A stretch of 3,772 nt of DNA from a virus (Duplodnaviria; Heunggongvirae; Uroviricota; Caudoviricetes). How positions within the stretch are numbered: position 1 is the first letter of the stretch; each line of letters begins with the position of its first letter. The position numbers and the translations under genes were made by a program. The notes under the pieces were generated by a model. It saw only the letters and a program-made list of their open reading frames with translations, ran no database searches and was not told the origin of the DNA. Below are positions 1 to 3,772 of the stretch, piece after piece. Location: IMG/VR virus record IMGVR_UViG_2648501165_000014; one strand, 5' to 3'.

Positions 1-357
1 TTAAAAAATCAGAACGCCGTGCGGCCTCAACACCCGAAAGGCTTCTTTAAATCTCTGTCGCGAATCATCACGCCAGGCATCTTTATTCAGCCGTCCATAT
101 TTCTTTCCCATCCAGGCGTTATCACCAACACTCTCAAGATGCGGAGGGTCTAATACAACCATCGAAAAAGATGCGTCTGCAAATGATAATGCACGAAAAT
201 CTGCGATAATGTCAGGGCTGATAATCAAGCGTCTCCCATTGCGTAATGTGTATCCTTCTTTTCTGATATCGCTGAATATCGCCCGTTCGTCAGACTTATC
301 GAACCAGAACATGCGGCTGCCACAGCACATATCAAGAATGGTTGCCGGTGCACTCAC
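1..357 (-). CDS. Putative SAM-dependent methyltransferase-like protein (amino-methyltransferase motifs), 118 aa, possibly truncated
   Basis: Complete ORF with GTG start at 357-355 and TAA stop at 3-1. The start overlaps the upstream gene's TGA by 4 nt (GTGA), suggesting translational coupling. The protein has an N-terminal motif-I-like segment (ILDMCCGSR) and, about 60 aa later, a DPPH tetrapeptide preceded by hydrophobic residues (MVVLDPPH), resembling motif IV (D/N-P-P-Y/F/H) of N6-adenine/N4-cytosine and RsmD/HemK-type methyltransferases. It ends just after a strand-like segment (LRPHGVLIF), so it is short for a full methyltransferase fold. Family assignment is by motif only. Confidence 0.55.
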   Translation of the reverse strand: MSAPATILDMCCGSRMFWFDKSDERAIFSDIRKEGYTLRNGRRLIISPDIIADFRALSFADASFSMVVLDPPHLESVGDNAWMGKKYGRLNKDAWRDDSRQRFKEAFRVLRPHGVLIF

Positions 358-776
358 TGCGCCACGTCCTGAAAATTACCCTGATAGAAAGCCAGTATGC
401 GCTGCATAACTTCGCTCTTCCGGCACTCGCGACAGATTCTGTTTAGGCGACTGTCGTAGCGACGTATTTCTCCGTCAGGTGATGACCAGATAAGGTCCGG
501 ATCAACCACAGCAGGTTTCTTCACCTTTGCCCTCGAGAGTTTTTTGCGGGCGTTTTGCCAGTCCTTACGCGCCTGTTCAGAGGGGAATAACCCGTAGCCG
601 GAGTTGTATACATCGCCACTGGCTACCAGCTCTCTGGCAAGAACGCTCATCAGATATCTAGTCGCACCTGTTTTAGCTTCCAGTTGCCGTAACGTCTCAC
701 GGCCGCTCTGGCGCACGAGTTCCACCACCTGCCATTTAATTTTTTCCCGCTCTTCTTGTGTAAAAACTTTTGCCAC
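354..776 (-). CDS. Hypothetical protein, 140 aa, putative winged-helix/HTH DNA-binding N-terminus with a basic central region
   Basis: ORF with GTG start at 776-774, preceded on the - strand by a strong Shine-Dalgarno (AAGGGGGA) about 5-12 nt upstream, and TGA stop at 356-354. It lies 40 bp downstream of the O-like gene and is coupled to the downstream methyltransferase-like gene. The N-terminal ~60 aa (EEREKIKWQVVELVRQSGRETLRQLEAKTGATRYLMSVLARELVASGDV) has the look of a winged-helix domain; the centre is basic (ARKKLSRAKVKKP); there is a single CxxC (CRECR). No confident family assignment. Confidence 0.55.
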   Translation of the reverse strand: MAKVFTQEEREKIKWQVVELVRQSGRETLRQLEAKTGATRYLMSVLARELVASGDVYNSGYGLFPSEQARKDWQNARKKLSRAKVKKPAVVDPDLIWSSPDGEIRRYDSRLNRICRECRKSEVMQRILAFYQGNFQDVAQ

Positions 777-816: not shown

Positions 817-1782
817 TTATCCTCTGAAACCAGGCGGAATTTCTGTATCCGGTTCAGAAATATGATTAACACAACGCTGTACAGGTGAACGTCCCAGGCG
901 GATGACCAGTTCGTCCCATTTTTCGCGGAGCTTTGACGGGCTCATGATGTTTTTTACCCAGAATGGATCTCGCTGAACCCGACCAAACATTTCGCAAATT
1001 TGTCTGTGGCTTCTGCCATCCAGCATCCGCATTGTGCGCACGTCATTGGCCCAGGCAGTCCAGTTAGGCTCTTTTGGTCGCATGATCTCGCCATCATCAC
1101 TGGCTGCCTGTTCGTAGAGACCCACGATCCGCCCCCAGATCCACTGCGCACACGCCAAATCCTCCCTGCTACCCCACTGGCGTTTTTTCGCACTAAACAC
1201 AACCGCGTCGGAGTTCCGGGTTAAAAAATCCTGTTCAGTCGTCTGCGGGTCCGGTTGCGAAGCTTCCGGACGAAAAGTGTTTTTATTCTCTGTAGTAATC
1301 TCTGTTGTATTCTCTGTAAGATCATCAGGCCATTTTGACCCGATGACATTGGGTCGTTTTGAACCAATGGAGCGTTTCATTTTGACCTCTTCCATCGTGT
1401 CATTTTGACCTGATGGAGCGGCGCATTTTGAACCGATGGATTCGCTCAATTTGCCACCATCTAAAAGCTCGCTCCCATAGTTGATCGTGTAGAAATTGGT
1501 CATATCGCGCTTTGATTTATTGAGCTTTTCACAACGCAAAAGCCCCAGCGTTTTCAGACTTGCAAACGCGCGCTTTAACGTTGACTCTGACCAGAATGGG
1601 AACTGTTCCAGCCATTGTTCCGTTGTGTTATAAATCCAGCGAACACCATCACATTCCATGCCGGAGTTGGTATCTCTCAACCAGTAGTGCAGTTGTTGCA
1701 AAACAATGGCTTCGTTTAAGCCAATTTTCATTGCCAGCTGCGTGTTTATAACCAGTGGGCGTTCAGCAAAAAGAAGGCTCAT
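817..1782 (-). CDS. Replication initiation protein, lambda O-like (phage replisome-organiser N-terminal winged-helix domain) with embedded iteron origin
   Basis: Uninterrupted frame 817-1836. The preferred start is ATG at 1782-1780 (MSLLFAERPLVINTQ...) with a GGATGG-like SD; the ORF-track start at 1836 is TTG with no SD. The N-terminal region (FAERPLVINTQLAMKIGLNEAIVLQQLHYWL...STLKRAFASLKTLGLL) resembles the O/DnaD-like replisome-organiser winged-helix. The central linker is encoded by tandem DNA repeats (SIGSK...SIGSKRPNVIGSK and TENTTEITTEN), as the lambda O gene contains ori-lambda iterons. Confidence 0.8.
   Translation of the reverse strand: MSLLFAERPLVINTQLAMKIGLNEAIVLQQLHYWLRDTNSGMECDGVRWIYNTTEQWLEQFPFWSESTLKRAFASLKTLGLLRCEKLNKSKRDMTNFYTINYGSELLDGGKLSESIGSKCAAPSGQNDTMEEVKMKRSIGSKRPNVIGSKWPDDLTENTTEITTENKNTFRPEASQPDPQTTEQDFLTRNSDAVVFSAKKRQWGSREDLACAQWIWGRIVGLYEQAASDDGEIMRPKEPNWTAWANDVRTMRMLDGRSHRQICEMFGRVQRDPFWVKNIMSPSKLREKWDELVIRLGRSPVQRCVNHISEPDTEIPPGFRG
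1286..1318. repeat. Three tandem 12-bp repeats (core TCTCTGT) in an AT-rich stretch flanking the iterons; candidate DNA-unwinding element of the origin
   Basis: TTCTCTGTAGTA / ATCTCTGTTGTA / TTCTCTGTAAGA, with the TCTCTGT core at 1287-1293, 1299-1305 and 1311-1317 (exact 12-bp period). They lie next to the iterons on the 3' side of the array in the O-gene reading direction and are flanked by T-rich sequence (GTGTTTTTATTC 1278-1289). This matches the iteron-then-AT-rich layout of lambda-type origins. Confidence 0.45.
1331..1460. repeat. Iteron array (putative replication origin) inside the O-like gene: about 5-6 direct repeats, consensus CATTTTGA(C/A)CnGATGGAGC, ~24-bp phasing
   Basis: Seen directly: CATTTTGACCCGATGACAT (1331), CGTTTTGAACCAATGGAGC (1355), CATTTTGACCTCTTCCATCG (1379, second half inverted), CATTTTGACCTGATGGAGC (1401), CATTTTGAACCGATGGATT (1425), and a degenerate CAATTTGCCACCATC (1448). 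Start-to-start spacing is 24, 24, 22, 24, 23 bp. Confidence 0.7.
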
Positions 1783-2457: not shown

Positions 2458-2491
2458 CTAAAAGCCACACTAACTAATGAGAGAAGTTGAA

Positions 2492-3772
2492 ATGAAATAT
2501 CCGACAGGCGTGGAAAACCATGGAGGGAAATTACGTATCTGGTTTGTTTATAAAGACGTAAGAGTCAGGGAAAATCTGGGGGTTCCTGACACAGCAAAAA
2601 ACAGGCGCGTTGCAGGTGAACTACGCTCCTCTGTTTGTTACGCAATAAAAACTGGTGTTTTCGACTATGCAAAACAGTTTCCCTCCTCACGCAATCTGGA
2701 AAAATTTGGTGAGGCCCGACAAGATTTAACCATAAAAGAACTGGCTGAAAAATTTCTGGCACTGAAAGAAACTGAAGTCGCCAAAACATCACTCAACACA
2801 TACCGTGCCGTCATCAAAAATATCCTGAGCATAATCGGTGAAAAAAATCTTGCCTCATCGATTAATAAAGAAAAATTACTGGAGGTTCGTAAAGAGTTAC
2901 TGACTGGATACCAGATCCCCAAAAGTAACTATATTGTTACACAACCAGGGAGATCGGCTGTAACTGTAAATAATTACATGACAAATCTTAACGCCGTGTT
3001 CCAGTTTGGTGTTGATAACGGTTACCTGGCAGATAATCCGTTTAAGGGGATCTCGCCATTAAAGGAATCAAGAACCATTCCGGATCCTCTTTCGCGGGAA
3101 GAATTTATCCGTCTTATCGATGCGTGCAGAAATCAGCAAGCAAAAAATTTATGGTGTGTTTCTGTTTATACTGGAGTTCGCCCTGGTGAGCTGTGTGCAC
3201 TTGGATGGGAGGACATAGATCTGAAAAATGGAACAATGATGATCAGGAGAAATTTAGCAAAAGACCGTTTCACGGTACCAAAAACACAGGCGGGAACCAA
3301 TCGGGTCATTCATCTTATTAAGCCAGCAATCGACGCTCTCCGGAGTCAGATGACATTAACGAGACTGAGCAAAGAGCATATCATTGATGTTCACCTCAGA
3401 GAGTATGGCAGAACAGAAAAACAAAAATGCACCTTTGTTTTTCAACCTGAAGTGTCAGCGAGAGTAAAAAATTATGGTGACCATTTTACCGTTGACTCAA
3501 TAAGGCAGATGTGGGACGCAGCGATAAAACGTGCCGGACTCCGCCATCGAAAATCATATCAGTCGAGACATACTTATGCCTGCTGGTCGCTGACAGCTGG
3601 TGCTAACCCGGCATTTATAGCAAACCAGATGGGCCATGCAGATGCGCAAATGGTATTTCAGGTATACGGAAAATGGATGTCTGAAAACAATAATGCACAG
3701 GTAGCTTTGTTAAATACACAGTTAAGCGAGTTTGCCCCAACCATGCCCCATAACGAAGCAATGAAAAATTAA
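2492..3772 (+). CDS. int: Tyrosine site-specific recombinase (phage integrase, lambda-Int family with N-terminal arm-type DNA-binding domain)
   Basis: The ORF is open from ATG 2477. The preferred start is ATG 2492 (MKYPTGVENHGGKLRIWF...), which has a purine-rich SD-like GAGAGAAG 5 nt upstream, whereas 2477 has none. The C-terminal catalytic domain shows the conserved tyrosine-recombinase signature residues: R in VYTGVRPGEL, the H-x-x-R box in SRHTYACWSL, H in MGHAD, and the nucleophile Y in VFQVYGKWM. The N-terminus (GGKLRIWFVYKDVR) resembles the arm-binding domains of enterobacterial prophage integrases. Stop is TAA at 3770-3772, the window end. Confidence 0.9.
   Translation: MKYPTGVENHGGKLRIWFVYKDVRVRENLGVPDTAKNRRVAGELRSSVCYAIKTGVFDYAKQFPSSRNLEKFGEARQDLTIKELAEKFLALKETEVAKTSLNTYRAVIKNILSIIGEKNLASSINKEKLLEVRKELLTGYQIPKSNYIVTQPGRSAVTVNNYMTNLNAVFQFGVDNGYLADNPFKGISPLKESRTIPDPLSREEFIRLIDACRNQQAKNLWCVSVYTGVRPGELCALGWEDIDLKNGTMMIRRNLAKDRFTVPKTQAGTNRVIHLIKPAIDALRSQMTLTRLSKEHIIDVHLREYGRTEKQKCTFVFQPEVSARVKNYGDHFTVDSIRQMWDAAIKRAGLRHRKSYQSRHTYACWSLTAGANPAFIANQMGHADAQMVFQVYGKWMSENNNAQVALLNTQLSEFAPTMPHNEAMKN

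Follow-up and report, generated by a model that had tools for sequence, protein, structure and literature searches.

The ORF occupying positions 1..357 (minus strand) of the 3,772-nt stretch of viral DNA analysed here, hereafter the window, is very probably a dead gene fragment in a decaying Qin prophage, that is, an ordinary pseudogene disrupted by two lesions. In the history that we propose, a lambdoid ancestor of the E. coli Qin prophage would have carried, downstream of an O-like replication gene and a DUF977 gene, the gene for a small (~162 aa) class I SAM-dependent methyltransferase whose SAM loop lay near the N-terminus, whose catalytic motif was DPPH, and which lacked a separate domain for target recognition. 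In the Qin lineage, this gene would have acquired a nonsense mutation at codon 119 (AAA>TAA), which is visible in the window, and a 1-nt insertion of G ~78 nt further on, which we infer for the window's own genome. The 118-codon remnant would then have been deprived of the end of strand β5 and of strands β6 and β7, would have gained substitutions at near-invariant sites, and would have persisted only because of its place in a vertically inherited prophage remnant. Most likely, its product does not fold properly and has no methylating activity.

Identification of the remnant ORF

The ORF has a GTG start, 118 codons and a TAA stop, and its translation reads MSAPATILDMCCGSRMFWFDK...VVLDPPHLESVGDNAWMGKKYGRLNKDAWRDDSRQRFKEAFRVLRPHGVLIF. 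Reverse complementing the window confirmed the preliminary description of a methyltransferase-like ORF with the signatures LDMCCGSR and DPPH, whose stop codon falls on window bases 1-3. The 118 sense codons (bp 4..357, minus strand) represent the 5′ remnant of a gene for a small phage class I SAM-dependent (DPPH-type) methyltransferase, and are identical to WP_001310834.1. The motif I-like SAM-binding loop LDMCCGSR (residues 8-15; bp 313..336, minus strand) was read from the sequence, and motif IV, DPPH (residues 70-73; bp 139..150, minus strand), from the sequence and the conservation table. Among 81 homologues, L8, D9, C11 and C12 were invariant, and G13, S14 and R15 were at least 90% conserved; the residues of DPPH were likewise invariant or conserved to at least 90%. 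The ORF matched phrog_954, "DNA methyltransferase", in a profile search (E 6.7e-58) and the PADLOC model MTase_II PDLC03288 (E 4.5e-45), as well as Pfam Methyltransf_11, for which the match was marginal (21.6 bits vs the 21.2 cut-off). Judging by these matches, it is a real coding sequence and no chance ORF.

The upstream operon neighbour is a DUF977 (YdaW/LygF-like) gene (354..776, minus strand; PF06163, E 3.7e-28). As follows from the coordinates of the two ORFs (354..776 and 1..357), the TGA stop of this gene and the GTG start of the remnant overlap in the tetranucleotide GTGA (bp 354..357, minus strand), a layout typical of translational coupling. The 4-nt overlap with the DUF977 gene is also present in the intact O121 allele (1088-1504 and 1501-1974). 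Since the start codon, the overlap, motif I and DPPH are all retained, a truncated peptide could still be made. This raises the alternative that the 118-aa product is functional, being made by coupling to DUF977 and serving as a SAM-binding, regulatory or partner-dependent half-enzyme, in favour of which one may also cite the identity of the allele across many E. coli genomes and the listing of WP_001310834.1 as a CDS in RefSeq. We consider this alternative very unlikely, for reasons given with the results below.

A scan of the window with Rfam found no element, and a promoter scan of the window gave matches at chance level (5 found vs 5.5 expected). A terminator-like hairpin at 12-35 was rejected, as it consists of the coding sequence for GVLIF and the T-run that follows.

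The window as a copy of the Qin prophage

Several hundred complete E. coli chromosomes matched window bases 1-1000 at 99.9% identity; in them, the remnant ORF corresponds to WP_001310834.1, annotated as "class I SAM-dependent methyltransferase", in the Qin cryptic prophage. The gene order in Qin is dicA/dicC, a ydaT-like gene, the O-like replication gene, the DUF977 gene and the remnant ORF. Its downstream neighbours are a DUF7167 gene interrupted by an internal stop, a hypothetical gene with a frameshift and part of an ISNCY transposase gene, all annotated as pseudogenes, in keeping with a decaying prophage; ydfW, flxA, relBE and hokD lie beyond. In the window, xis (2206-2457) and int (2477-3772) are part of the Qin integration module next to rspB.

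The lambdoid O-like replication gene (817..1782, minus strand), which belongs to the same operon as the remnant, has a counterpart called "DNA replication protein O" in phage PhiR42_1. Its RefSeq CDS is 321 aa long, and the 339-aa ORF extending to 1836 starts at an upstream TTG. Within this gene, at 1323-1454, there are 4-5 iteron-like direct repeats with the core CATTTTGAMC..GATG and a spacing of 23-24 bp. An origin inside the O gene is the lambdoid arrangement, and these repeats fit it. A separate 12-bp triple repeat (TATTCTCTGTAG-like) was located at 1284-1319.

The Qin copy in the window lacks the ~7.5 kb that would separate the ydaT-like gene from xis. At the deletion joint, ~2171-2180, a remnant of the ydaT-like gene is fused to the region upstream of xis, the missing Qin genes being dicC, dicA, ydfA-C, dicB, ydfD and the exonuclease gene. 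Of the complete E. coli genomes in the collection, just two (UTAK-1 and OkiPb01711) share this joint; both have a ~1.25-kb IS3-family element exactly at the joint, whereas the window has no IS there. The IS-free joint may be the ancestral state of the site or may have arisen in assembly. Also lost with the deletion is the Cro/DicC-side promoter region that heads the remnant's operon in fuller Qin copies, and this loss in the window argues against a functional 118-aa product.

It was also noticed that a run of 10 N at 1929-1938, within the ydaT-like gene, stands for 18 nt (TTTAACCCGGCGATCATG in E. coli OkiPb01711). As the run alters the apparent frame, the ydaT-like gene appears split in ORF lists. 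The possibility that the run marks a scaffold gap over an IS was rejected, because alignment to the corresponding locus L009 revealed that only the 18 nt are replaced and that the IS3 element present in related genomes is ~250 bp away (~2180).

Truncation relative to homologues

A search with the repaired full-length sequence as the query retrieved 6,694 proteins at E ≤1e-5. The best 120 of these 6,694 were 155-279 aa long except for one 133-aa fragment, which was set aside, leaving the best 119 as the alignment set. The preliminary description had considered that the homologues might be uniformly about 118 aa; alignment revealed instead that the best 119 of 6,694 were all at least 155 aa, with modes at 160 and 248. 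All of them extend 37-161 residues beyond residue 118, none has its end near this position, and in 119/119 a Lys follows residue 118, which argues against the functional-fragment alternative. The Enterobacter phage Mulvp2 homologue, at 155 aa, has the same layout as the full-length relatives. A subgroup of ~248 aa (P0009, P0015, P0017-P0019 and others; hosts Leclercia, Klebsiella, Citrobacter and Enterobacter) consists of the methyltransferase core and a ~90-aa C-terminal extension.

The part absent from the remnant ORF is a C-terminal block, K119-W-N-E...K-T-H-W (end of β5, β6 and β7), that is conserved in the homologues with the pattern KWNETQIPVSQILALTD.KP.I.QRTGK.DKTHWIIF.K. The same shortening was apparent from the profile coverage: out of the 229 positions of phrog_954, the remnant covered 52-165 and the repaired protein 52-205, and out of the 169 positions of PADLOC MTase_II, the remnant covered 3-122 and the intact E. 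coli homologue P0001 covered 3-163. There are 45 residues between His73 of DPPH and the end of the remnant, not the approximately 55 given in the preliminary description.

Two lesions and the surviving tail

A DNA alignment of the Qin alleles with the intact 157-aa O121 prophage allele WP_001275735.1 and the O157 prophage alleles revealed two lesions. The first, inside the window, is a nonsense lesion at codon 119 (bp 1..3, minus strand), where a T for A substitution (alignment column 355) has changed AAA, coding for Lys in intact alleles, to TAA; both Qin alleles read TTT TAA at this column, and the O121 and O157 prophage alleles read TTT AAA. The second is one extra G in a GG run (column 433), ~78 nt downstream of the TAA, at a position outside the window. 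It was found in the L001, L006 and L009-L017 loci, and its presence in the window's own genome is inferred from identical alleles elsewhere: the ORF of the window and the L001 allele (6001-6357) are 100% identical at the DNA level with 0 mismatches, and the nine loci that encode the exact protein (L009-L017) share an identical 508-nt allele with both lesions, so that ten loci of other E. coli genomes (L001 and L009-L017) carry the window allele, base by base.

In these identical alleles, the missing tail is still encoded past the stop, in the same frame (WNETQIPVSQILALTDRKPVICQRTGK...), because the first lesion is a nonsense mutation. In L001 the sequence after the Phe codon reads TAA TGG AAT GAA ACG..., which translates as stop, WNETQIPVSQILALTDRKPVICQRTGKKR, stop, and after a shift of one base the tail continues as NDKTHWIIFMKEASSE, again followed by a stop. 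Between the repaired tail and the tail of P0001, the intact E. coli protein, 38/43 positions are identical. We expect the sequence to the left of the window to read TGGAATGAAACGCAAATACCG...ACAGGGAAAAAACGATAAAACCCACTGG, with GGG in place of GG. A frameshifted continuation had been considered beforehand; the missing tail and the frameshift do exist in the identical alleles, but the tail starts in the same frame as the ORF and the shift comes only ~78 nt on. With a tail directly downstream and all of the best 119 of 6,694 homologues longer, the reading as a truncated pseudogene, one of three options raised in the preliminary description, is borne out.

The sister Qin allele (L006, 1546-1990), which is 98.8% identical, has both the TAA at codon 119 and the extra G, which places the two lesions before the split of the two Qin sub-lineages. 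In one metagenomic variant, P0006, codon 119 specifies Glu, yet the frameshifted end is the same. Copies in other phages and prophages are broken at other positions: the O157 prophage copies (L008, 1501-1974), annotated as pseudogenes, have W95stop (TGG>TAG at codon 95), whereas in Salmonella phage vB_SosS_Oslo (L004, 1989-2366) the reading frame shifts after about codon 92. Such different lesions in independent copies suggest random decay of a dispensable gene rather than programmed recoding. Recoding, by which readthrough of the TAA together with a frameshift at the G/A run would yield a low level of the full-length enzyme, could appeal to the tail being still recognisable in the DNA and to the insertion lying in a slippery-looking GGGAAAAAAC run. 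However, it would require two separate recoding events, whereas intact relatives use one uninterrupted frame, with AAA and GGAAAAAAC at the two positions, and no Rfam element accompanies the gene in the window; with the gene broken differently elsewhere as well, we regard recoding as extremely improbable.

Just as negligible is the chance that the stop codon stems from an error in sequencing or assembly and that the actual genome has an unbroken gene. The window assembly is imperfect, as indicated by the N-run at 1929-1938, and the stop comes after a T6 homopolymer run. Nevertheless, the lesion is a substitution and not an error in homopolymer length, and the stop was found in 10/10 loci checked base by base. 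The complete E. coli records with this allele (≥99% identity) number 382, and 22/22 sampled rows, being 100% identical to the two-lesion query, carry the stop by definition.

Regarding the "intact" reference itself, the O121 allele WP_001275735.1 (L007, 1501-1974; 157 aa) has an Arg at the otherwise invariant Trp82 (NARMGKKYG), and may be inactive too.

Substitutions and selection in the remnant

The remnant differs from the consensus at 11 residues in sites at least 80% conserved among the best 119 of 6,694 homologues. Six of the changes, C39R, D40N, P58S, F69L, R76S and G102R, affect sites at least 99% conserved, and the residue found in the remnant has a frequency of 0 in the same 119 homologues. 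F69L adjoins DPPH, with Leu in the remnant and Phe in 119/119 homologues, and G102R is in the helix before β5. H36Y affects a site that is 97% conserved in these homologues. The substitutions at invariant sites point to relaxed constraint, and six never-seen residues at such sites, F69L and G102R among them, are difficult to reconcile with a functional fragment. As no independent lineage of ~118 aa was found either, the two other options offered at the outset, a minimal orphan methyltransferase needing a partner and a non-catalytic SAM-binding protein, received no support.

Private changes were counted at those codons on which four intact E. coli alleles agree, and came to 12 nonsynonymous and 8 synonymous for the Qin branch vs 5 and 10, respectively, for the four intact alleles summed; the direction of this contrast fits relaxed constraint, although it was not significant (Fisher p = 0.18). 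Pairwise dN/dS was 0.20-0.28 between the Qin and intact alleles and 0.09-0.32 among the intact alleles, thus giving no separation of the Qin allele. That the Qin values are no higher is due to the divergence being mostly older than the inactivation. For this reason, the case for a pseudogene is based on lesion mapping and site conservation.

Predicted structure and what the truncation removes

The intact E. coli homologue P0001 (162 aa), to which the remnant is 87% identical over 118 residues, was modelled with AlphaFold2 from 81 aligned homologues (mean pLDDT 77.5, pTM 0.79). In the N-terminal part, the model has β1 at 7-11, short strands at 34-37, 43-46 and 50-52, and β4 at 64-70, ending at DPPH; in the C-terminal part, it has a helix at 95-109, β5 at 110-121, a helix at 127-131, β6 at 140-143 and β7 at 150-156. 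The last residues of the remnant, GVLIF (114-118; bp 4..18, minus strand), correspond in this model to the first two-thirds of β5. The preliminary description, which put the end of the ORF just behind the strand that comes after motif IV, is therefore nearly right, but the end lies within that strand. By the model, the residues lost beyond 118 comprise the end of β5, a helix, β6 and β7. As the remnant ends inside β5 and is without β6 and β7, the seven-stranded class I sheet could not be completed; having 3/7 core strands missing or cut, as predicted, weighs further against a functional fragment.

Foldseek matched the P0001 model to class I SAM methyltransferases in the PDB. The best match was archaeal Trm11 (6zxy; E 1.3e-5, TMq 0.43, 17% identity over 110 columns), and matches to DNA N4-cytosine/N6-adenine enzymes (8s9m, 8urk and 1aqi) were weak (E ~1e-3, TMq 0.34-0.47). 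When the repaired protein was compared with PDB entries by sequence, nothing was retrieved at E ≤1, and NCBIfam gave only generic methyltransferase matches, all sub-threshold. For Pfam PF01555 (N6_N4_Mtase), the 118-aa ORF had no match and the repaired protein remained below the threshold (15.6 vs 26.7 bits, E 0.016). Pfam detected no THUMP and no additional domain of another kind in the remnant ORF or the repaired protein.

Distribution in E. coli and annotation

The remnant is already catalogued, with its exact sequence deposited in RefSeq and shared by thousands of E. coli assemblies; E. coli W and ATCC 8739 are among the strains with this allele. A 498-nt query comprising the gene plus the tail had matches in 901 of 5,426 complete E. 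coli genomes. At ≥99% identity, corresponding to the window allele, there were 382 complete E. coli records; at 95-99%, corresponding to the sister pseudogene allele, 98; and at 90-95%, 20. The 402 records at 80-90% represent other prophages, with intact and broken copies mixed. The exact 118-aa protein was found in 23,673 blocks of the assembly collection, and each of the 8 places displayed among these had the Qin context, with the ~1.1 kb downstream free of called genes.

The wide spread of the exact protein could in principle be a sign of retention. One such scenario, to which we assign a chance slighter still than that of a functional product in general, is that the fragment is translated via DUF977 coupling and has been kept for binding SAM or for interference, for instance by poisoning or titrating the intact homologous methyltransferases of superinfecting lambdoid phages. 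However, a single Qin remnant passed on vertically accounts for the cross-genome identity. Moreover, the untranslatable tail is also 100% identical, and the identity of the allele is therefore no evidence of selection on the ORF.

In RefSeq, the two Qin alleles are treated inconsistently. The sister allele (NZ_CP027462.1, C6W75_RS11095; L006) is at the same locus, has the same TAA and the same extra G, and differs from the window allele at 6/508 nt, with R76 and L99 instead of S76 and S99; its RefSeq entry is that of a pseudogene ([quoted passage not shown]), whereas the window allele (L001) is annotated as the CDS WP_001310834.1. Because this CDS carries the same lesions as the annotated pseudogene, inventories of methylomes or restriction-modification systems should leave the 118-aa entry out of their methyltransferase counts. 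As one more decayed Qin gene, the remnant is of little importance in itself.

Comparison with the intact family and known methyltransferases

The real question concerns the intact family, whose members of 157-162 aa have DPPH, have no target-recognition domain, are closest to Trm11 among solved folds and occur in phages of many phyla. Searches of a paper collection (Qin prophage, DPPH motif, accessions and orphan methyltransferase) returned nothing on the gene or the family, and no report on the substrate or activity of this small phage methyltransferase family. The names given to homologues in phage records vary between DNA, N4-cytosine and cytosine methyltransferase, and the hosts of the phages carrying the family include Streptococcus, Vibrio, Acinetobacter, Listeria and Gordonia, among others. 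Considering the motif and the annotation, the intact family most likely acts as an exocyclic-amine methyltransferase on nucleic acid.

In E. coli and other Enterobacterales prophages, the intact family is represented by WP_001275735.1 and WP_000145671.1 (157 aa), P0001 (162 aa) and phrog_954, and is also described by the PADLOC models PDLC03288 (MTase_II, Type II methyltransferase) and PDLC03730 (oMTase, orphan methyltransferase). It shares with the remnant motif I, DPPH, and the same place in the lambdoid early-right operon, after the DUF977 gene with a 4-nt overlap. The intact proteins extend 39-44 residues further (KWNETQ...KTHWIIF), whereas the remnant stops and its tail is frameshifted. 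At 157-162 aa, these proteins have no room for a separate target-recognition domain. The absence of such a region from the ORF, as reported in the preliminary description, is thus correct, but it is a family trait and not a result of the truncation.

The DNA N6-adenine/N4-cytosine methyltransferases (M.TaqI, 1aqi; M.BceJIV, 8urk; and rotifer N4CMT, 8s9m) have a catalytic half that likewise comprises DPPH, a helix and a hydrophobic β5; the small phage family differs in having no target-recognition domain. The best structural match to the P0001 model is the class I fold of the tRNA m2G10 methyltransferase Trm11 (6zxy, 6zxv and 5e71), and one E. coli allele, 85% identical at the DNA level, is named "TRM11 family methyltransferase" in RefSeq. 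Trm11 has the D-P-P-aromatic amino-methyltransferase motif after β4; it is ~320 aa long, with a THUMP RNA-binding domain and a Trm112 partner. The small phage family has neither THUMP nor the Trm112 partner, and 6zxy aligned with it on the catalytic domain only.
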